Shown in pieces: positions 5,281-13,935 of a stretch of DNA of 64,000 bases. Both the position numbers and the translations under genes were made by a program. How positions within the stretch are numbered: position 1 is the stretch's first letter; each line of letters starts with the position of its first letter. Source of the DNA: an uncultured Candidatus Rokubacteria bacterium (lineage in GTDB: Bacteria > Methylomirabilota > Methylomirabilia > Rokubacteriales > CSP1-6). The notes under the pieces were generated by a model. The model was not told the DNA's origin. It was given only the letters and a program-made list of their open reading frames with translations, and made no database searches. Location of the stretch: assembly GCA_963762145.1 (NCBI GenBank), contig CAVXJS010000019.1, positions 288,001 through 352,000 on the forward strand, given 5' to 3'.

Positions 5281-6354
5281 CGGGCCGGGTCGGTCGCGCG
5301 GGCGCGCGCTTCCGAGAAGATCTCGAGCGGCATCCCCAGGAACGTGGCGACCACGTCCGGATCGAAGTGGGTGCCCGCCGAGTCGCCGGATCCGATCGCG
5401 CGCCGCCTCGAGCGAGATGGCCTTCGAGTAGGGCCGGTCGAAGGTCATCGCGTCGAAGGCGTCGGCGATCGCGAAGATGCGCGCGCCGAGGGGGATGCTC
5501 GCGCCCCGCGAGCCCGAGCGGATAGCCGGTGCCGTCCCAGCGCTCGTGGTGGTGGTGCACCACCGGGATCGCGTCGCGCAGGAACGGGATGCTTCTCCAG
5601 GATCTGCCGGCCGATCTCGGGGTGCGCTGCGCATGATCGCCCACTCCGCCGGCGTGAGCGGGCCGGGCTTGAGGAGGATCGCGTCGGGGATGCCGATCTT
5701 GCCGATGTCGTGCAGCAGGACGCCGCGGCCCAGCGCGTCGAGCTCGGCGGCGGGCAGCCCGTGCGCGCGCGCGAGGGCCAGCGAGTAGGCGTGGACGCGG
5801 CGGGAGTGCAGCTCGGTGCCGACCTCGCGGGTGGCCAGGACGGAGCCGAGCGCCTCGAGCGTGGCCTGGTAGGTCTGCTGCAGCTCGCCGCAGCGCGGCG
5901 GCGAGATCGCGGGTGGCCTCGGCGACCCGCTGCTCGAGCAGCGCCTGGTGCTCGCGGCGCTCGATCAGGAGCTGGCGGCGCTCGAGCGCGCGCTCGGCCG
6001 AGAGCAGGAGCTGGTCCAGGTTGACCGGCTTCAGGATGAAGTCGCTGGCGCCCATGCTTCAGGCTCTCGACCGCGGTGCGCACGTCGCGCGGCGCCGGTC
6101 AGCACGATCACGGCCGCGTCGGCGTCGACGGGCCTTGAGCGTGCTGGAGGAGCTGGAGACCGTCCATGACCGGCATCTTGAGATCGGTGATCGTGAGCGG
6201 CGGCGCGCTCGGTCTCGAAGAGCTCGAGCCGCCTCCCGGCCGTTGCCCGCCATCCGGCACTCGTAGCCCGCGGAGCCGAACACCGCGCGCAGCGTGGTCG
6301 CGGATGTCGTCGCTCGTCGTCGACGATCAGGACCCGCCGGGCCGAGGCGGTCAC
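5277..6354 (-). CDS. Response regulator with HD-GYP cyclic-di-GMP phosphodiesterase domain (multiple frameshifts)
   Basis: Fragments across frames: RVLIVDDE, ASDFILKP, LHDIGK, HHHERWDGTGYP, ARIFAIADAFDAMTFDRPY. Confidence 0.85.
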
Positions 6355-7396
6355 GCGGTCACGCGCCCGGCCTCCGCGCCGGCGCCGGCCGGCCGCGACG
6401 TCCTCGTGCACCGACACGCGGTTCTTGCCCGCGCGCTTGGCCGCGTAGAGCGCCTCGTCGGCGGCCCGGATGAGCTCCTCGGCGGCGGGGGCCACGTCCT
6501 CGGGCAGGGAGGCGATGCCGAAGCTGGCGGTGACGCGGCGGCCGTGCGCGAAGGTCCAGGTGGAGAGCACGTAGCGGATGCGGTCGGCGTAGAGGCGCGC
6601 GCCGCTCTTGCTGGTCTCGACCAGGAGCACCGCGAACTCGTCGCCGCCGTACCGGCAGATGACGTTGATGCCGCGCGACTGCTTGAGCAGGATCTCGGCC
6701 ATCGCGCGGAGCGTCTCGTCGCCGGCCCCGTGGCCCAGGTCGTCGTTGACCGCCTTGAAGCCGTCGAGGTCGAGCAGCACCACCGAGACCGGGTGGTTGA
6801 AGCGGCGGTAGCGCGAGACCTCTTCCTCGAGCCGGATCGAGAAGAAGCGGCGGTTGTAGAGGCCGGTGACCTCGTCCTTGAACGAGAACTCCTTGAGCTG
6901 GGCGCTGGTGGACTCGAGCTCCTTGTAGGCGGTGTCGAGCCGGCGCGCGTACTCGTTCACGTCGGAGGCCTGCTGCTCGATGGTGACCAGCATGCGCGAG
7001 AAGGAGTGCATGAGCGTGTCCACCTCGTCGCTCTGCTGCACGTACTGCTGCACCGCGGTCGTCTCGAGGCTCGGCGACGGGCCGGGTCGGGCCCGTCGCC
7101 GGTGCGGGCCGCCGCGGCGCATCGAGCGCATCCGCGTGGCGCACCACCGAGGTGGCCAGGTCCCAGAGCATGAAGCTGCCCGCGGCCATGAGGAGCCCGG
7201 TGCCGCCGAGCATCACCAGCATCCACGGCAGGTTGCGCTCCTGGGCCTGGGGATCGAGCAGGGGGAGCGCGTAGGCGTAGACGAGGTAGGCGACCACCAG
7301 CATGGGCAGGAAGGCGGTCAGGCTCATCGCGATCAGAATCTTGCGCTTGATGCGGCGGGCCGCGGGGGTCTCGGCAGCTCTGGCGCGTCTGGCCAT
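6351..7396 (-). CDS. Membrane-anchored diguanylate cyclase (GGDEF), frameshifted
   Basis: Two N-terminal TM helices (ORF 6359..7396), then DEVTGLYNRR, DLDGFKAVND, RYGGDEF, ADEALYAAK (ORF 6031..7131). Confidence 0.88.
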
Positions 7397-7495: not shown

Positions 7496-7503
7496 AGCTT
7501 GCC

Positions 7504-7755
7504 ATGGCCCAGGAAGCAAAAGTCGTCAATCCTGACAGGCAGATTGACTGCACCGGGCTCTTCTGTCCGATGCCGATCGTGAAGACCCGCGAGGCGATGA
7601 CCCAGATGGCGGCGGGGCAAGTCCTCGCGATGCTCTCCGACGATCCCGCCTCCGACCCGGACATGCGCAGCTGGGCGCAGAACACCGGTCACGAGCTGCT
7701 CGAGGTCACCCGGAACGGGGCGGTCTACCGCTTCGTGATCAGGAAGTCGCGGTAG
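7504..7755 (+). CDS. tusA: Sulfur carrier, TusA/SirA family
   Basis: DCTGLFCPMP (CPxP) motif, 83 aa. Confidence 0.92.
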   Translation: MAQEAKVVNPDRQIDCTGLFCPMPIVKTREAMTQMAAGQVLAMLSDDPASDPDMRSWAQNTGHELLEVTRNGAVYRFVIRKSR

Positions 7756-8951
7756 ATGCCGGTGGAGCCCGCCGGGGTCGAGCCCGGCCGCGTCTATCTC
7801 GACTACGCCGGGTTCGCGCCCGTGGACCCGCGGGTCCTCGCGGTCATGCGCCCGTTCCTGGAAGCGGGGATCGGCAACCCGTCGGCCCGTCACTCGCTGG
7901 GCGCGGAGGCCCGGGAATCCCTCGACGCGGCCCGGGTGAAGGTCGCGCGCCTCTGCGGCGGCGCCTCGGGCGGGATCGTGTTCACCTCCGGCGCCACCGA
8001 GGCCAACAACCTGGCGATCAAGGGCGTGGTCGCCCGCGCCCGCGGGCGGCGGGGCGGTCCGCGTCCTGCTCTCGGCCATCGAGCACATCTCGGTGATCAA
8101 CGCCTGCCGCGACCTCGAGAAGGCCGGGGTGACCGTCGGCTACCTGCCGGTGGACGGCGAGGGTCGCGTCGATCCGGACACGGTGCGCGGCGGCGCTCAC
8201 CGCGGACACGGTGCTCGTCTCGATCGCGGCCGCGAATCCCGAGATCGGCACGGTGCAGCCGATCAAGGACATCGGGCGCGCGACGCACGCGGCGGGCGCC
8301 GTGCTGCACGTGGACGGCGTCGGCGCGCTCGGCCGGGTGCCGCTCAACGTGGAGGCGATGGGGATCGACCTCCTGACCGTTTCCGGGAACGATCTCTACG
8401 CTCCGCCCGGGTGCGGAGCGCTCTGGGTCCGGCCCGGCGTGCGGATCCACCCGCAGGTGCTGGGCGGCGGCCAGGAAGGCGGCTACCGCTCGGGGACCGA
8501 GAACGTGCCCGGCGTGGTCGGCCTCGGAGTCGCCGCCGAGCTGATGCGCGTCGAGGGCGCCCACCAGGAAGCGATCCGGCTGGCCGGCCTGCGCGACCGG
8601 CTCATGCATGGGCTGCTCGAGGCGATTCCGGACTGCCGGCTGACCGGCTCGGCGACCTCGCGACTGCCCCACCACCTGAGCCTCGTGGTGCGCGGGGTGA
8701 AGGCCGACGGCGTGCTCCTCGACCTCGATCTGGACGGCGTGGCCGCCTCTTCGGGATCGGCGTGCGCCTCGCTGACCCAGACGACGTCACACGTGCTGCG
8801 GGCCATCGGCTGCGCGCCCGAGGAGGCGGACGGCTCGCTCTGCTTCACGCTCGGCCGGTGGAGCACCGCCGCCGACGTGGACGCGGTGCTCGACCGGCTG
8901 CCGCCCATCGTGGCGCGCCTGCGCGCGCTGGCCGCCGCGCTCCACAGCTAG
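7756..8951 (+). CDS. IscS/NifS-like class V PLP-fold protein with Asp in place of the PLP-binding Lys (frameshifted)
   Basis: YLDYAG, GNPSARH, FTSGATEANN, GGGQE, RSGTENV, SSGSAC; SGNDLYAPPG where SAHKxxGPKG is canonical. Confidence 0.88.
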
Positions 8952-8968
8952 ACCGCCCGCCTCGCGCC

Positions 8969-9659
8969 GTGAAGCTGGTCCTGTTCGACATCGACGGCAC
9001 GCTGATCACGTCCCGCGGCGCGGGGCGGCGCGCGATGCGGGCCGCGCTCGAGCGGGTCTTCGGCACCGCCGGAGGGATCGACGAGTACAACCTGGCCGGG
9101 CGGACCGACACCCGCATCGTCCACGACGTGATGGGCGCCCTCGGCTGGGAATCCGCGCGGGTGAACGAGCGCCTCGACGACTTCTTCGAGGCCTACGCGA
9201 GCGGACTCGTCGGGCGAGATCGGGGACGGCCGCCACGTCGTCACGCTGCCGGGGGTGGCCGCGGTCGTGGAGGGCCTGGCCGCGTCCCCGGACGTGGTCC
9301 TGGGCCTGGTGACGGGCAACATCGAGGAGGGCGCCCGGATCAAGCTCCTGCCCACCGGGCTCTGGCCGCACTTCCGGGTCGGGGCCTACGGCTCCGATCA
9401 CATGGACCGCCGGCGCCTGCCGTCGCTCGCGACGCGCCGGGCCCACGCGCTGGTGGGTTACGCCTTCGCGCCGCCCGAGGTGGTCGTGATCGGCGACACC
9501 CCGCACGACATCGACTGCGCCCGCGCCTTCGGTGCGGTGGCGATCGCGGTCACCACCGGCCAGTACACGCGCGCCGAGCTCCTCGCCGACCGGCCGGACC
9601 ACTTGTTCGACGACCTGGGCGATGTCGCAAAGGTGCTCGAAGCTGTGCTGGGCCGGTGA
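8969..9659 (+). CDS. HAD-superfamily hydrolase (frameshifted)
   Basis: KLVLFDIDGTL motif I, LVTGN motif II, VIGDTPHD motif IV. Confidence 0.88.
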
Positions 9660-9689
9660 GAGCGTCGGAACGAAAGTACGCCGGACCCG

Positions 9690-9745
9690 AGCCGCGCGGA
9701 GCGCGGCAATGGGGGAGTGCGGGGGCCATTTCTGGGCCCCCGCAT
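9690..9745. repeat. Dispersed palindromic repeat, copy 1
   Basis: 55/56 nt identical to 33085..33140; hairpins GCCGCGC-GGA-GCGCGGC and TGCGGGGGCC-N7-GGCCCCCGCA. Confidence 0.9.
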
Positions 9746-9823: not shown

Positions 9824-10903
9824 CTAGGCCAGGGGCCTGACGCCCAGCTCGCCCGCGATCTCGTTGCACTGGCGAACGAGGGCGGGGGCGACCGGGATGC
9901 CCTGGGCGCGGCGCACGCGCTCGGTCTCGGCCTCGGGCTCGCCCGCAGTGTAGATGCGCTCCTGGCCGTCGGCGCGCGGCGTATCGTGGAGGGCCTGCAG
10001 CATGTCGTCCATGGCGGCGGTGAAGTCGTCGACGGGCCGGAAGCGCTTGATGTCGATCGCCGCGAAGCAATGGCCGGTGTTGGTCTCCTTGCGCTCGCGG
10101 CCGTTGGTGCGGTCGAGCACGTTGCCGTAGACGCCGCCCGAGAGCACCCCGGAGAGGATGTCCACCATCACACCCAGGCCGTAGCCCTTGTGGCTGCCGA
10201 GCTCGCGGCTGCCGCCCAGGGGGGAGAGCAGGCGCGAGGCGAGGATCTCCCGCGCATCGGAGGTCGGCCGGCCCTGCGCGTCGAGGCCCCAGCCCTCCGG
10301 GATCGGCTTGTTCCAGCGCGAGGCGATGGTGAGCTTGCCGACCGCGACGGTGGTCGTGGCCATGTCGAGCACGAACGGTGCGTGCCGCGCGGCGGGCGCG
10401 GCGAGGCTGAGCGGGTTGGTGCCCATCATCGGCTTCCGGGCGAAGGTCGGCACCATGGCCACGAAGGGCGAGTTGGTCACCGCGAAGCCGATCATTCCCC
10501 GCGCGAGGGCCATCATGGAATAGTTCGCGCAGGCGCCGAAGTGGTTCGAGTTGCGCACCGCGACGATGCCGATGCCGTAGGTCTCCGCCTTGGCGATGGC
10601 GAGCTCCATCGCCAGGACGGAGGCGGGATGCCCGAGGCCCTTCTGGCCATCCACCAGGGCGGTGGCCAGATCGTCGCGCGCCACGGTGGGCTCGGCCTCG
10701 GGCCGGATGAAGCCGGCCCGCGTCCACTCGACGTACTTCGGCAGCATGCCGATGCCGTGGGAGTCCACTCCGCGCAGGTCGGTGCGGACCATGAGATCGG
10801 CGGAGAGGGCGGCGCTCCTCGGCGACATCTTGAGGGCCTCGAGCACCGAGACGATGTAGGCGGTGAGCGCAGGAGCGGAGACGGTGACGGCGGTATCGGC
10901 CAT
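9824..10903 (-). CDS. Ldh_2 family (type-2 malate/L-lactate, ComC/AllD-like) oxidoreductase
   Basis: RGVDSHG, RNSNHFGA, GTNP, DMATT, HKGYGL motifs; fused to npdG in the ORF track only by a frameshift. Confidence 0.9.
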   Translation of the reverse strand: MADTAVTVSAPALTAYIVSVLEALKMSPRSAALSADLMVRTDLRGVDSHGIGMLPKYVEWTRAGFIRPEAEPTVARDDLATALVDGQKGLGHPASVLAMELAIAKAETYGIGIVAVRNSNHFGACANYSMMALARGMIGFAVTNSPFVAMVPTFARKPMMGTNPLSLAAPAARHAPFVLDMATTTVAVGKLTIASRWNKPIPEGWGLDAQGRPTSDAREILASRLLSPLGGSRELGSHKGYGLGVMVDILSGVLSGGVYGNVLDRTNGRERKETNTGHCFAAIDIKRFRPVDDFTAAMDDMLQALHDTPRADGQERIYTAGEPEAETERVRRAQGIPVAPALVRQCNEIAGELGVRPLA

Positions 10904-10920
10904 GGCGGTGGGATCCTCGC

Positions 10921-11572
10921 TCAGGGCAGCCCGGTGATCTTGATGCCCGAGTTCTTCAGCTTGTAGCGGCGGTTGATCGTGGCGAGGACGGCGGTGATGC
11001 CCTCGAGCGGTCCCGCGTTGGTGAGAGCGCCCACGTCCACCGCGCGCAGGCCCATGGACGCCCCCAGCTCGGTCGACGAGCTTCTTGGCCTCCGCGTCGC
11101 CGCCGCAGAGCAGCAGGTCGCACTCGATCGCGTGGTCGCCCGCCGCCAGCTCGTGGGCCGCGATGTGATGGAAGGAGGCCACCACCCGGGCCTCGGGGCC
11201 CAGGATCTCCTGCGCTTCCTCCGCGGCGGAGCCCTGCGCCGGCGGCGTGAAGAGGCGGCCGCCGCCGAAGGTGAGGGGCACCACCGTGCTCACCACGATC
11301 TTGCCGCGGCAGACGTCGCGCAGCTCGGGGAGCGTGGTCTGCAGGCCCGTCGCGGGCACGGTCAGCACGACCACATCCGCGGCGGCCGCGGCTTCCCGGT
11401 TCGACTTGCCGTCCACCCGACTGCCGGGAGTGGACGCGGCCAGCTCCGCGGCCTTCGCGCGGGCGCGCTCCGGATCGCGCGAGCCGATGATCACCTCGTG
11501 CCCGGCCTGCGCCCACCGCAGCCCGAGCCCCACGCCTTCCTTGCCGGTGCCGCCCACGATGCCGATCCGCAT
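10921..11572 (-). CDS. npdG: NADPH-dependent F420 reductase (Fno/NpdG), one frameshift
   Basis: GIVGGTGKEG, GSRDPERA, SAAE, C-terminal INRRYKLKNSGIKITGLP. Confidence 0.9.
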
Positions 11573-11591
11573 GCCGTCTCCTCGCTCTGGG

Positions 11592-12344
11592 TTATCGGAA
11601 CAGATCGCGGGCCGGATCGCGAAGCAGGGCGCGGCTCGAGCCGTCGCCCCGCTCCCAGTCGAGCCCGCGGATGATCGCCACCGGAATACGGTCGAGCTTG
11701 CCCATCACCGGCTCCGCCGCCCCGGCCAGCTCGTCGGCCAGCGCCAGGATGGTCGCCTGGAGCACGTAGCCCGCGGGGTCCAGCTCGCCGAGGTAGCTCC
11801 GGATCGGCTCGAAGCCGGCGAGGCCGACCGCCACGTTCACGAGGCCCTCCCGCCAGGGCCGACCGAAGGTGTCCGCGATGATCACGGCCAGCTCGAGGCC
11901 GGTGAGCGCCTGCAGCCGCTCGAGGAGCGCGGCCGCGGAGCGGTCCGAGTCCGCCGGCAGCAGGCACGCGGTGTCCGAGTCCACGTTGGACTGGTCCACC
12001 CCCGCGTTCGCGCAGACGAAGCCGTGATGCGTCTCCACGATGAGCACGCCCTTGGCCTGGCGCACGATGCGCCGGCTCTCGCGCAGGATGACCTCGACGA
12101 GGCGCGGATCGCGGCCGATGTCCTCCGCCACCGCCTGGGCCCGCGGGGAAGGCGTCACGTCCGACAGCCGCACGAGCCGTCCCTCGGCCTTGGAGACGAT
12201 CTTCTGGCTGATCACCAGGAGGTCCCGCGCCTCGATCGGCGTGCCCTGGCGGCGGGCCGCGTCCGCGATCAGGGCGGCCACGTCGTCCCCGGGCCGGAAC
12301 TCGGGGAGGCCCCCGACGCCGATGACCTCGTAGCGAGGCGGCAT
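11592..12344 (-). CDS. cofE: Coenzyme F420-0:L-glutamate ligase (single domain)
   Basis: SQKIVSKAEG, ANAGVDQSN, DTFGRPWREG, ADELAGAA; about 250 aa, no nitroreductase extension. Confidence 0.93.
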   Translation of the reverse strand: MPPRYEVIGVGGLPEFRPGDDVAALIADAARRQGTPIEARDLLVISQKIVSKAEGRLVRLSDVTPSPRAQAVAEDIGRDPRLVEVILRESRRIVRQAKGVLIVETHHGFVCANAGVDQSNVDSDTACLLPADSDRSAAALLERLQALTGLELAVIIADTFGRPWREGLVNVAVGLAGFEPIRSYLGELDPAGYVLQATILALADELAGAAEPVMGKLDRIPVAIIRGLDWERGDGSSRALLRDPARDLFR

Positions 12345-12346
12345 GG

Positions 12347-13009
12347 TTATCGAGTCCCCGCCGCCCGGGCGCCCGCGGGGAAGCCGCGCAGGAGCCGGGC
12401 GCTCCGGGTGGCGGGCCCGCGCTCGAGGAGCACGGGCAGGTCGTCGGGGGCGTCCACGTCGAGACCGATCCCGGGCAGCTCGAGCACGCGCGGAGCCAGG
12501 CCGGCCGCCCGCGCGGCCTTCAAGTGATTCTCGAACGAGGGCTCGCCAAACGTGAGCGGCCATGGCGTCGGGCGGGGCCAGGAGGGCCGCGTTGGTGCCC
12601 AGGCCCGAGCGGGAAGGGACGAAGACCACGCCGGCGGCTTCGTCGAGGGCGTCGCGGAGCGCGGCGATCTCGAGGGCGGTGACGCAGGGCACGTCACCTG
12701 GCAGGGTGAGGAAGCGCGCCACGCCGCGGTCGACCGCCTCGCGCTGGGCGAAGGCCACCGCCGCGGTGTGGCCGCGGTTGTCGCTCTCGGCGAGGCACTC
12801 GACGCCCCGGGCGCCCGCGACGGCCCGTACCTCCGGATCGCGGGTGACCACGAGCACGGCGCCCGGCAGGGCGGCCGCCGCGGCGTCGAGCACGTCCTCG
12901 AGCATCGCGCGCGCCAGCGTCGCGGCGCTCGGACGGCGACAGCGCGGGAATGAGACGCTGCTTGGCGTTGACCAGGTCCTTGCACGGGAACGGCCAGGAG
13001 AAGGCTCAT
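12347..13009 (-). CDS. cofC: 2-phospho-L-lactate/PEP guanylyltransferase (frameshifted)
   Basis: AMLEDVL, LPGDVP, GLGTNA, FGEPSFENH, GLDVDAPDDL. Confidence 0.88.
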   Translation of the reverse strand: MSLLLAVPVQGPGQRQAASHSRAVAVRAPRRWRARCSRTCSTPRRPPCRAPCSWSPAIRRYGPSRAPGASSASPRATTAATPRRWPSPSARRSTAAWRASSPCQVTCPASPPSRSPRSATPSTKPPAWSSSLPARAWAPTRPSWPRPTPWPLTFGEPSFENHLKAARAAGLAPRVLELPGIGLDVDAPDDLPVLLERGPATRSARLLRGFPAGARAAGTR

Positions 13010-13935
13010 GCGGCCGCGCTCAGGACAGAGCGGGCCAGCGTGATCTCGGCGTCGCGGCTCGACATCATCGTGGGCGCGGGCACCGGCCTGACGCCCGCCG
13101 CCCGGATCTCCTCGCGCCAGGGCTCGGTCCTGCTCGTCGAAGACGAGGCGATCGAGCCAGGGCGCCGTAGGCCCGGGCGACGCCGGCGGCCGAGACCGGC
13201 AAGCCCGCGGCGGCCATGAGCCGCCCAGCGGGCCCGAGACGGCGGCGCCACCCACGATGGGGCTGACGGCGACAACGTTCGCCGGCGTGGCGCCCAGAGC
13301 CTCCACGAGCCCGGGAACGGCCAGGATCGGGCCCACCGAGGTGATCGGGTTGGACGGGCACACCAGCACCGCATCCGCGCCGGCGATGGCGTCCAGCACG
13401 CCCGGCGCCGGTGCCGCCGCGGCCGCTCCGGCATAGTCCACCGCGCGCACCTCGACCTGCGCCTTCTCGCGCACGAAGTACTCCTGGAAGGTCGAGCCAG
13501 CCGTCCGGGCCGAGGATGCGGGTGCGCACCGGCTGATCGGACATCGGCAGCACGGTCGCCGTCACCCCGAGGGCCGCCGCGATCGAGCGCGTGACCTCGG
13601 TCAGGGTGCGGCCTTCGCGGAGCAGCCGCGTCCGGTGCAGGTGGGTGGCCAGGTCGCGGTCGCCGAGGTTGAACCAGACCGGCTCGCCGAAGCGCGCGAT
13701 CTGGTCGAGGGCATGGAACGTCTCGCCGGTGAGGCCCCAGCCCTTCTGCTCGTCGATGCACGCCGCCCAGCGTGTAGGAGACGGTATCGAGATCGGGTGA
13801 GACGTGCAGGCCCCAGATCTCGGCGTCGTCACCGGTGTTCACGATGACGGTGAGATCGCGCGGGTCCATGATCCGGCCGAGGCCGCGGAGCAGCTTGGCG
13901 GCGCCGGTGCCACCCGCGAGCGCGGTGAGCTTCAT
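13006..13935 (-). CDS. cofD: 2-phospho-L-lactate transferase (frameshifted)
   Basis: LAGGTGAAKL, VNTGDD, SPDLDT, WFNLGDRDLATH, PSNPITSVGPIL, SPIVGG. Confidence 0.92.
   Translation of the reverse strand: MKLTALAGGTGAAKLLRGLGRIMDPRDLTVIVNTGDDAEIWGLHVSPDLDTVSYTLGGVHRRAEGLGPHRRDVPCPRPDRALRRAGLVQPRRPRPGHPPAPDAAAPRRPHPDRGHALDRGGPRGDGDRAADVRSAGAHPHPRPGRLARPSRSTSCARRRRSRCARWTMPERPRRHRRRACWTPSPARMRCWCARPTRSPRWARSWPFPGSWRLWAPRRRTLSPSAPSWVAPPSRARWAAHGRRGLAGLGRRRRPGLRRPGSIASSSTSRTEPWREEIRAAGVRPVPAPTMMSSRDAEITLARSVLSAAA

Follow-up and report, generated by a model that had tools for sequence, protein, structure and literature searches.

A lysine-less IscS-like protein encoded between tusA and a HAD-family gene in Rokubacteriales, a probable relay partner of TusA

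The window analysed here is a stretch of 64,000 nucleotides from an uncultured Candidatus Rokubacteria bacterium (assembly GCA_963762145.1, contig CAVXJS010000019.1, positions 288,001 to 352,000). It contains three genes that follow each other head to tail on the + strand: tusA (7504-7755), a gene encoding an IscS-like protein (7756-8951) and a gene encoding a HAD-family phosphatase (8969-9659). The three genes form one operon of Rokubacteriales, whose middle protein is, judging from its sequence, the known lysine-less type of IscS that was first described in Archaeoglobus fulgidus. In this type (hereafter the Asn-Asp type), the pair Asn-Asp replaces the His-Lys of the cysteine desulfurases. 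The whole Asn-Asp type, which is mostly archaeal, is generally coupled to tusA, in a cassette that is usually tusA-(dsrE)-iscS-iscU. Rokubacteriales are special in that iscU and dsrE have been lost, that a HAD gene is the neighbour and that the IscS-like protein has extra cysteines. We propose that this protein is probably a persulfide relay partner of TusA, free of pyridoxal 5'-phosphate (PLP), rather than a desulfurase.

The active site of the IscS-like protein

The features of the three genes, all on the + strand, are as follows.

7504..7755: tusA, 83 amino acids; Pfam TusA, E value 4.5e-25.
7564-7566: codon of the acceptor Cys21 of TusA, in the motif CPMP, read from the sequence.
7756..8951: gene of the lysine-less (Asn-Asp) IscS-like protein, in three frames in the assembly; identified by three Pfam Aminotran_5 matches, tblastn, a frame plot of the G+C content at third codon positions (GC3) and the match to PDB 4EB5.
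8307..8324: HVDGVG, in which His and Asp (E. coli 178 and 180) are kept and Gly stands for Gln183.
8382..8411: SGNDLYAPPG, with Asn-Asp for His205-Lys206; the Asp codon is GAT, 8391-8393.
8748..8765: persulfide loop SSGSAC, whose Cys codon (8763-8765) corresponds to E. coli Cys328.
8811..8813: Cys at position 351 of the reference protein P0003, specific to Rokubacteriales.
8841..8843: Cys at position 361 of P0003, at the place of the substrate-binding Arg354.
8969..9659: HAD-family phosphatase gene, identified by Pfam; GTG start, motif DIDGT, a single frame shift at 9211.

Residue numbers are, by alignment, those of E. coli IscS (from the K-12 record), and P0003 is the intact orthologue used as the reference for the IscS-like gene. 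The two proteins align end to end with 39% identity; Asn-Asp is found at His205-Lys206, Gly at Gln183 and Cys at Arg354, and the equivalents of His104, Asp180 and Cys328 are retained. A preliminary description of this DNA, made from the sequence alone, had reported SGNDLYAPPG (with GAT as its Asp codon), HVDGVG and an intact SSGSAC, and all three are found where it placed them; the Cys at the place of Arg354 is a loss beyond those that it listed.

We take Gln183 of IscS to be a contact of the O3' hydroxyl of PLP, and Arg354 to be a contact of the carboxylate of the cysteine substrate. As for Lys206, it bears PLP as an internal aldimine in E. coli IscS (accessible part of PMC2854127). Since the Schiff-base lysine, Gln183 and Arg354 are all lost, the IscS-like protein would be incapable of releasing sulfur from cysteine, and by likeness to the A. 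fulgidus protein we infer that it has neither PLP nor desulfurase activity. Its fold and dimer-type architecture are retained, as is the Cys of the mobile loop, on which true desulfurases carry persulfide. Pfam Aminotran_5 (PF00266) matches it in three pieces (model positions 1-82, 91-133 and 136-370), and the scores of P0003 with the NCBIfam equivalog models are under the cut-offs (400.2 versus 530.75 for NifS, 324.4 versus 643.2 for IscS), which agrees with the database name "cysteine desulfurase family protein".

The protein could still be an enzyme, which would hold PLP non-covalently or through another lysine and would make persulfide from cysteine or act on another amino-acid substrate. 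In its favor, conservation extends to His104, Asp180 and the residues of the phosphate pocket, and Rokubacteriales have an invariant lysine of their own, Lys314 (49 of 49 sequences; the 53 other Asn-Asp proteins all have Glu). However, Lys206, Gln183 and Arg354 are lost together, position 314 is in the small domain, outside the motifs of the PLP pocket, and inactivity is reported for the closest relative that has been characterised (accessible part of PMC7585200), so that we consider an enzymatic function very unlikely.

The Asn-Asp pair is a fixed trait, and not the result of chance. Among database proteins, the 120 closest ones all have it (identity 76-95% over the last 251 residues); 112 of them have at least 380 amino acids and one reads GAPG for GPPG, and the third position after the Asp of HVDGVG is Gly in all 120. 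The 49 orthologues from genomes across the order (59-91% identical) all carry Asn-Asp and the loop Cys, and the latter is invariant in 102 of 102 Asn-Asp proteins. The preliminary description was right in considering these changes as in-frame substitutions and not as indel noise. It had also named relatives with His-Lys at this position as evidence that would speak against its idea; no relative above about 50% identity carries this pair.

A match with an E value of 1e-60 or lower is present in 246 of 251 genomes of the phylum, a tally that includes five unpublished ones (G076, G216, G217, G034 and G044). The order of the window is alone in having matches with an identity of about 60% or higher; in the other families of the class, the E values go no lower than about 1e-90 to 1e-100, as for ordinary IscS/NifS. 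The IscS-like gene is under purifying selection: the median ratio of nonsynonymous to synonymous substitution rates (dN/dS) is 0.148 for this gene and 0.287 for tusA (171 of 171 pairs, from 19 genomes of the same genus).

Relation to other lysine-less IscS proteins

The best PDB match of the IscS-like protein is A. fulgidus IscS, 4EB5 (E value 1.1e-66), whose SSNDIYGPKG aligns with the motif of the window; in 4R5F, there is a Lys at the position of the motif Asp. We take 4EB5, 4EB7 and 4HVK to be structures of A. fulgidus IscS2 (AF0564), and 4R5F to be that of its Asp-to-Lys variant. The second-best solved relative, closer than the E. coli and human IscS, is a His-Lys enzyme of 406 amino acids named "cysteine desulfurase", for which there is a recent series of structures (9WEP, 9WFE and related entries, E about 1e-62).

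A search of 1.84 billion cluster representatives gave 150 hits that were aligned with the query (151 rows). One representative is 72% identical and all others 50% or less. The site is occupied by Lys in 130 rows, by another residue in 20 and by a gap in one; the 20 rows without Lys also lack Gln183 and Arg354, and the other lysine-less representatives have A or G in the Gln183 column and Q, V or L in the Arg354 column. In a FastTree tree of 148 rows (without three short ones), a single group of 20 rows, with support 94, contains 17 of the 18 rows that lack the lysine.

A second tree was obtained from an IQ-TREE quick search of 106 rows, with support from the Shimodaira-Hasegawa-like approximate likelihood ratio test (SH-aLRT) only and no bootstrap; it held 67 Asn-Asp proteins from the pattern scan described below, 4 Rokubacterial proteins, 14 other lysine-less and 11 His-Lys representatives. 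The homologues of the Asn-Asp type, whose phylogeny the preliminary description had proposed as a check, form one clade of 85 rows (SH-aLRT 99), which includes the type of the window and a row from Archaeoglobaceae (L131). The relation to the lysine-less IscS of A. fulgidus that this description had pointed to is thus borne out both by the best PDB hit and by the place inside the Asn-Asp clade. Rokubacteriales form a single group (support 100) on a long stem (0.73), and their sister is a metagenome-assembled genome (MAG) labelled Bacillota (support 89). Bacteria are found among archaea in at least five places, a pattern that would fit repeated transfer, possibly from archaea.

The alignments contain another lysine-less IscS-like group, which is outside the Asn-Asp clade and has NQ, QQ, QG, RS, NT, HR, HL or HT at the site (representatives P0124, P0130, P0139, P0145, P0146, P0162, P0174, P0194, P0221 and P0239). 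One further representative, P0137, has kept His-Lys and lost Gln183 and Arg354.

The linkage to tusA

The genomes of 185,579 species were scanned with a DNA pattern for [ST]-x-N-D-x-Y-[GA]-P-x-G-x-G-A-L. An Asn-Asp Aminotran_5 open reading frame (ORF) is present in 80 of the 80 stretches that have flanks, with 253-519 residues from stop to stop (mostly about 390-430, the shortest being cut). The sampled loci are archaeal in 56 cases (Bathyarchaeia, Asgard groups, Thermoplasmatota, Methanosarcinales and relatives, Hadarchaeota, Geoglobus and others), Rokubacterial in 10, and from other bacteria in 14 (Actinomycetota, Spirochaetota, Nitrospinota, Zixibacteria, a "Bacillota" MAG, Deltaproteobacteria and unclassified MAGs). 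Their flanks were searched with hidden Markov models (HMMs) of the neighbours, built from the same loci, and only the loci with enough flank were counted (for tusA, at least 900 nt upstream). The counts are as follows.

Archaea: tusA upstream in 42 of 45 loci, iscU downstream in 43 of 52, dsrE in 30 of 45, HAD gene downstream in 0 of 52.
Other bacteria: tusA upstream in 13 of 13, iscU downstream in 9 of 14, dsrE in 10 of 13, HAD gene downstream in 0 of 14.
Rokubacteria: tusA upstream in 10 of 10, iscU downstream in 0 of 10, dsrE in 0 of 10, HAD gene downstream in 9 of 10.

Over the three groups, 65 of 68 sampled Asn-Asp loci have tusA upstream in the same orientation, and Pfam recognises DsrE in 31 of the 35 ORFs that lie between tusA and the IscS-like gene. 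As a control, the same pattern with His-Lys codons was run over metagenome contigs and gave 77 His-Lys ORFs, for which tusA is upstream in 0 of 49 cases and within 1.5 kb in 1 of 77, and iscU downstream in 29 of 59. The co-occurrence with tusA, which the preliminary description had suggested checking, is therefore clear (65 of 68 versus 0 of 49). Its idea of a bacterial pair of TusA and a pseudo-desulfurase stands in so far as the coupling is conserved, in 49 of 49 Rokubacteriales loci; however, the pair is not special to this bacterium, since the coupling is general to the Asn-Asp type.

The iscU ORF that follows the Asn-Asp gene is about twice as long as normal, with about 263-292 amino acids, in Asgard archaea, in Actinomycetota and in some other bacteria (L062-L064, L066, L069, L071, L073, L109, L125, L127 and L136). 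This length suggests that IscU may be fused to another domain in these organisms.

The frequent proximity of iscU is in favor of another function, which has been proposed for A. fulgidus and in which the IscS-like protein is only the partner of a scaffold: it would dock an IscU encoded elsewhere, with its loop Cys as the fourth ligand of the cluster, and would carry no sulfur, while TusA would modulate the protein or compete for it, in the way that TusA and IscU compete on E. coli IscS. In the structure of the A. fulgidus (IscS-IscU)2 complex, a Cys of IscS is indeed a ligand of the [2Fe-2S] cluster (PMC13066941 and PMC7585200, in their accessible parts), iscU follows the Asn-Asp gene in most archaeal and other bacterial loci sampled (43 of 52 and 9 of 14, see above), and the genome that contains the window has three NifU_N genes. 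On the other hand, iscU is missing from 49 of 49 Rokubacteriales loci, each IscU gene of the genome is beside a canonical desulfurase of its own, and this function leaves unexplained why tusA, and not iscU, has been kept in every lineage. We regard it as unlikely.

The Rokubacterial form

The form that is found in Rokubacteriales was characterised from 49 loci of the order (L030, whose contig ends inside the gene, was left out). A tusA gene is directly upstream of the IscS-like gene in all 49 and a HAD-family ORF is present in 48, while iscU and dsrE are found in none of the 49. By tblastn, 28 of 30 and 19 of 20 relatives have the HAD gene immediately after the IscS-like gene. We also considered the HAD protein as a general partner of the Asn-Asp IscS, an idea that had to be rejected: its HMM detects the gene beside 0 of 70 non-Rokubacterial sampled loci, and so it is seen in Rokubacteriales only. 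The Asn-Asp loci of other lineages that have no iscU are followed by unrelated genes.

The residues that are specific to the group were identified by comparing 49 Rokubacterial proteins with 53 other Asn-Asp proteins. Cys361, at the place of Arg354, is present in 46 of 49 of the former and in 0 of 53 of the latter, where V, L, E or M is found instead; for Cys351, the counts are 42 of 49 and 0 of 53. Cys116, found in 47 of 49 Rokubacterial sequences, is also specific to the group, as are Arg117, Trp222 and Pro216, in addition to the Lys314 discussed above.

These cysteines raise the possibility of a self-contained thiol or metal site: Cys351 and Cys361 would have been gained after the loss of IscU, within or close to the vacant substrate pocket, and would hold, together with the loop Cys, a polysulfide chain, a metal or an iron-sulfur cluster, with TusA feeding the site. 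The distribution of the two residues is in line with this, as are the position of Cys361, exactly at Arg354 of the substrate pocket, and the length of the stem branch of the Rokubacterial clade. However, Cys361 is absent in 3 of 49 proteins (L054, L059 and L060, with Ala, are among those without it) and Cys351 in 7 of 49, and we hold such a site to be improbable. The same low credence is given to a broader scenario, in which the Rokubacterial protein would have been rebuilt without IscU, the two new Cys and the loop Cys forming in the vestigial PLP pocket a TusA-fed site for a polysulfide, a metal or an iron-sulfur cluster, and the co-inherited HAD protein acting on a phosphorylated sulfur donor or cofactor; the whole would be a cysteine-independent module of an aerobic or facultative soil bacterium, transferred from an archaeal iron-sulfur cassette.

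The genome also has desulfurase genes beside NifU_N genes at three other places (C11:435882-437517, C11:441911-443415 and C16:3-796). The desulfurase encoded at C11:441911-443415 carries FSGHKIYGPKG, and is the one (L010) that was read for His-Lys. A canonical His-Lys IscS accompanied by IscU, which the preliminary description had proposed to look for, is thus present in the same genome. TusA matches in this genome are limited to the locus of the window and one other place, and they are not beside the canonical desulfurases. An ORF of the DsrE family (C11:441191-441520, minus strand) is divergent from the canonical His-Lys iscS-iscU pair and just upstream of it.

The integrity of the genes

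The IscS-like gene occupies three frames of the window, which change upstream of the motifs: frame 1 up to about 8050, frame 2 up to about 8188, and frame 3 beyond. With P0003 as a query, the tblastn match to frame 1 covers residues 1-110, that to frame 2 residues 98-143 and that to frame 3 residues 144-396, and the GC3 phase changes at the same points. The HAD gene is shifted once, near 9211. We compared positions 7500-9700 with Logan contigs from three soil-metagenome DNA runs of three studies (X1, X5 and X6). The two frame shifts of the IscS-like gene, on the + strand, are as follows.

8043: first frame shift, one surplus base, absent from X1 (2 contigs) and X6 (1 contig).
8188: second frame shift, one surplus base, absent from contigs of X1, X5 and X6.

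Near-identical contigs of these three runs are also one base shorter at 8966 and at 9211. In the phylum scan, the gene is in a single frame in the relatives, and the genome of the window itself matches over residues 143-396 only. Since the short-read contigs do not have the surplus bases and the relatives are in one frame, the shifts are single-base insertions of the assembly, or at most specific to the strain, and not a sign of gene decay. The window may have been assembled from the sample of one of these runs; this does not weaken the point, because the short reads would then disagree with their own assembly.

Two frame shifts in the IscS-like gene and one in the HAD gene could, in principle, betray a decaying gene or an assembly artefact devoid of function. 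We reject the pseudogene hypothesis, which is extremely unlikely in view of the independent short-read contigs without the extra bases, the intact relatives, the dN/dS of 0.148 and a GC3 that remains above 0.9 in the shifted frames past the switch points.

Other genes of the genome are also in pieces, such as those encoding Aminotran_5 and NifU_N domains (C11:441911-442999, C11:435882-436977 and C11:437142-437517). It would nevertheless be only partly true to call the genome uniformly noisy: rpoB is intact in one frame, and several Aminotran_5 and NifU_N genes are fragmented. Gene calls in this genome require a reading that tolerates frame shifts.

TusA and the HAD protein

The TusA protein matches E. 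coli TusA (1DCJ/3LVJ) with an E value of 2e-12. C22, P23, P25, D48 and D54 are invariant in 102 of 102 linked sequences, and these include the equivalents of Cys19, Asp45 and Asp51. In E. coli, Cys19 of TusA is about 4 Å from Cys328 of IscS, and Asp45 and Asp51 are conserved near Cys19 (accessible part of PMC2854127). Regarding the partner, three residues of E. coli IscS that touch TusA, Glu49, Asp52 and Arg55, have kept equivalents in the IscS-like protein. The score obtained with the NCBIfam TusA equivalog model (60.4) is under the cut-off of 78, and that for YedF is nearly as high (57.6). A complex prediction from alignments of the IscS-like protein and TusA gave a score of 0.01 for a mark of 0.32, which gives no answer either way.

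The HAD protein is, from its domain matches, a generic class-I HAD. On intact relatives, Pfam finds Hydrolase_like, HAD, Hydrolase and HAD_2; the nearest structure, 2HCF (E value 6e-45), only has a generic hydrolase name; no NCBIfam subfamily fits, all scores being far below the cut-offs (55.4 versus 218.9 for the best). The preliminary description had imagined that this phosphatase might handle PLP or pyridoxamine 5'-phosphate, but nothing links the protein to these cofactors: it is below every NCBIfam cut-off and its closest structure is generic.

Proposed function

We argue that the IscS-like protein most probably works as a relay. If it is unable to make persulfide, the sulfur must come from elsewhere. 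In the mechanism that we propose, TusA would be loaded with sulfane sulfur by a source other than the IscS-like protein. The sulfur would then be exchanged between the Cys of TusA and the loop Cys of its partner, on the model of the E. coli complex of IscS and TusA, whose structure is solved. The IscS-like protein would thus be a docking adaptor which hands the sulfur onward. In most lineages the acceptor would be the IscU encoded next door; in Rokubacteriales, which have no local IscU or DsrE, it may be an IscU encoded elsewhere or another client. We only infer the binding of TusA, the direction of sulfur flow and any role of the HAD protein.

Several observations weigh against this mechanism. 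The absence of an adjacent IscU in Rokubacteriales leaves the relay without a demonstrated end point. Trp45, Arg220 and Arg237, which belong to the TusA interface in E. coli, are not kept in the Rokubacterial protein. Residues of the PLP pocket are still conserved (the Thr of the GATE motif, His104, Asp180, Ser203 and the RSGTEN stretch), and this pocket may still bind PLP non-covalently, or another ligand. Last, the evidence for the tusA linkage comes from a pattern scan that gave at least 120 stretches, 80 of them with flanks, which are a sample in unknown order and concern Asn-Asp forms only; the HMMs used to detect the neighbours derive from the loci themselves, and the His-Lys control comes from a different collection.

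The operon and its flanking genes

The TAG of tusA abuts the ATG (7756) of the IscS-like gene. The flanking genes are all on the opposite strand, with a GGDEF gene upstream and genes for Ldh_2, an F420-dependent oxidoreductase, CofE and CofD downstream, so that tusA, the IscS-like gene and the HAD gene are a self-contained unit. No promoter was found by a scan upstream of tusA. On the other side, one more feature is of note.

9719..9743, + strand: inverted repeat, perfect and rich in G+C, with arms of 9 bp and a loop of 7 nt, read from the sequence, 60 nt past the stop codon of the HAD gene.

This inverted repeat is not followed by a run of T, and hence is not among the results of the terminator scan; it may be the end of the operon. 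Just past it, at 9771-9753, there is a terminator-like site of the convergent gene on the minus strand. Contigs of run X15 (whose RNA label is a guess) cover parts of the tusA, IscS-like and HAD genes, which is too weak for any claim about expression or co-transcription.

The G+C content is about 70% across the window, and the names of the closest protein relatives assign it to Rokubacteria/Methylomirabilota. The downstream genes belong to a coenzyme F420 cluster (9824-13474, minus strand: Ldh_2, F420-dependent NADP oxidoreductase, CofE and CofD). The Ldh_2 and F420-dependent NADP oxidoreductase domains are read in a single ORF of 582 amino acids, and CofE (F420 ligase) is read together with an NTP-transferase domain; these apparent fusions may be effects of read-through or frame shifts. 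Upstream, the GGDEF diguanylate cyclase gene (6031-7396, minus strand) has its N-terminal membrane part in another, overlapping frame (ORFs 6031-7131 and 6359-7396), and its split is probably one more frame shift of the assembly.

Comparison with known systems

The closest known system is that of A. fulgidus, whose protein has no desulfurase activity owing to the Lys-to-Asp change and contributes a Cys ligand to the cluster of IscU, according to the accessible parts of PMC7585200 and PMC13066941. The preliminary description had mentioned both this change and the little or no activity of the protein: Asn-Asp is present in 4EB5, and the loss of activity is the one reported in PMC7585200. A. fulgidus IscS2 and the Rokubacterial protein (about 45% identity) are alike in their clade, the Asn-Asp site, the loss of Gln183 and Arg354 and the retention of the loop Cys. 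They differ in that the Rokubacterial protein has a Cys, and not a hydrophobic residue, at the place of Arg354, a second extra Cys, Trp222 and Lys314, and in that the Asn-Asp motif is followed by Pro-Pro-Gly instead of Pro-Lys-Gly. The locus is also different: it has no adjacent iscU and a HAD gene downstream, and the host has canonical IscS-IscU pairs in addition. In the case of Archaeoglobaceae, the sampled locus (Geoglobus, L131) is tusA-iscS(Asn-Asp)-iscU.

IscS1 of Methanosarcina acetivorans (iscSU1) is also reported to lack the essential lysine and has been suggested to act like the A. fulgidus protein (accessible part of PMC7585200). Unlike the Rokubacterial protein, it is paired with IscU, and inclusion bodies are reported in the same source. 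The Methanosarcinales locus of our sample (L096) is tusA-dsrE-iscS(Asn-Asp)-iscU. More generally, the cassette tusA-(dsrE)-iscS(Asn-Asp)-iscU of anaerobic archaea and some bacteria has, like the Rokubacterial operon, tusA directly upstream on the same strand and an IscS of the same clade, whereas Rokubacteriales have neither dsrE (0/49) nor iscU (0/49), and a HAD gene instead.

The complex of E. coli IscS and TusA (3LVJ; PMC2854127, accessible part) resembles the proposed pair in having homologues on both sides, with equivalents of Cys19, Asp45 and Asp51 in TusA and of Cys328, Glu49, Asp52 and Arg55 in IscS. The difference is that in E. coli TusA is loaded by an IscS that has PLP and is active, and that iscS and tusA are not linked. 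The minimal ISC system (MIS, MisS-MisU) of Garcia et al. also consists of an IscS/NifS-like protein without chaperones or carriers; as described in the accessible parts of PMC13066941 and PMC12192291, it has an active cysteine desulfurase and a scaffold, while the Rokubacterial locus has neither competent chemistry nor an adjacent scaffold.

We found no description of a link between TusA or DsrE and the lysine-less IscS in the literature searched, which left out most subscription journals, and the word TusA does not occur in the accessible part of PMC7585200. The lysine-less IscS is known; what is new is the Rokubacterial form, without IscU and DsrE, linked to a HAD gene and with extra cysteines.

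Significance

It is important to note that databases name these genes "cysteine desulfurase" despite the missing catalytic residues, which is misleading. These loci bear on how the lysine-less IscS is supplied with sulfur for iron-sulfur clusters: the near-universal presence of tusA, and often of dsrE, before Asn-Asp genes, and its absence at matched His-Lys loci, point to a supply of sulfur that is borne by proteins and independent of cysteine. This general link to tusA is the more important lead, to which the window adds a bacterial, scaffold-free version. The latter keeps just TusA and a dead IscS, which makes the core pair accessible without the scaffold, and it is found in a widespread soil phylum, alongside normal IscS-IscU systems.

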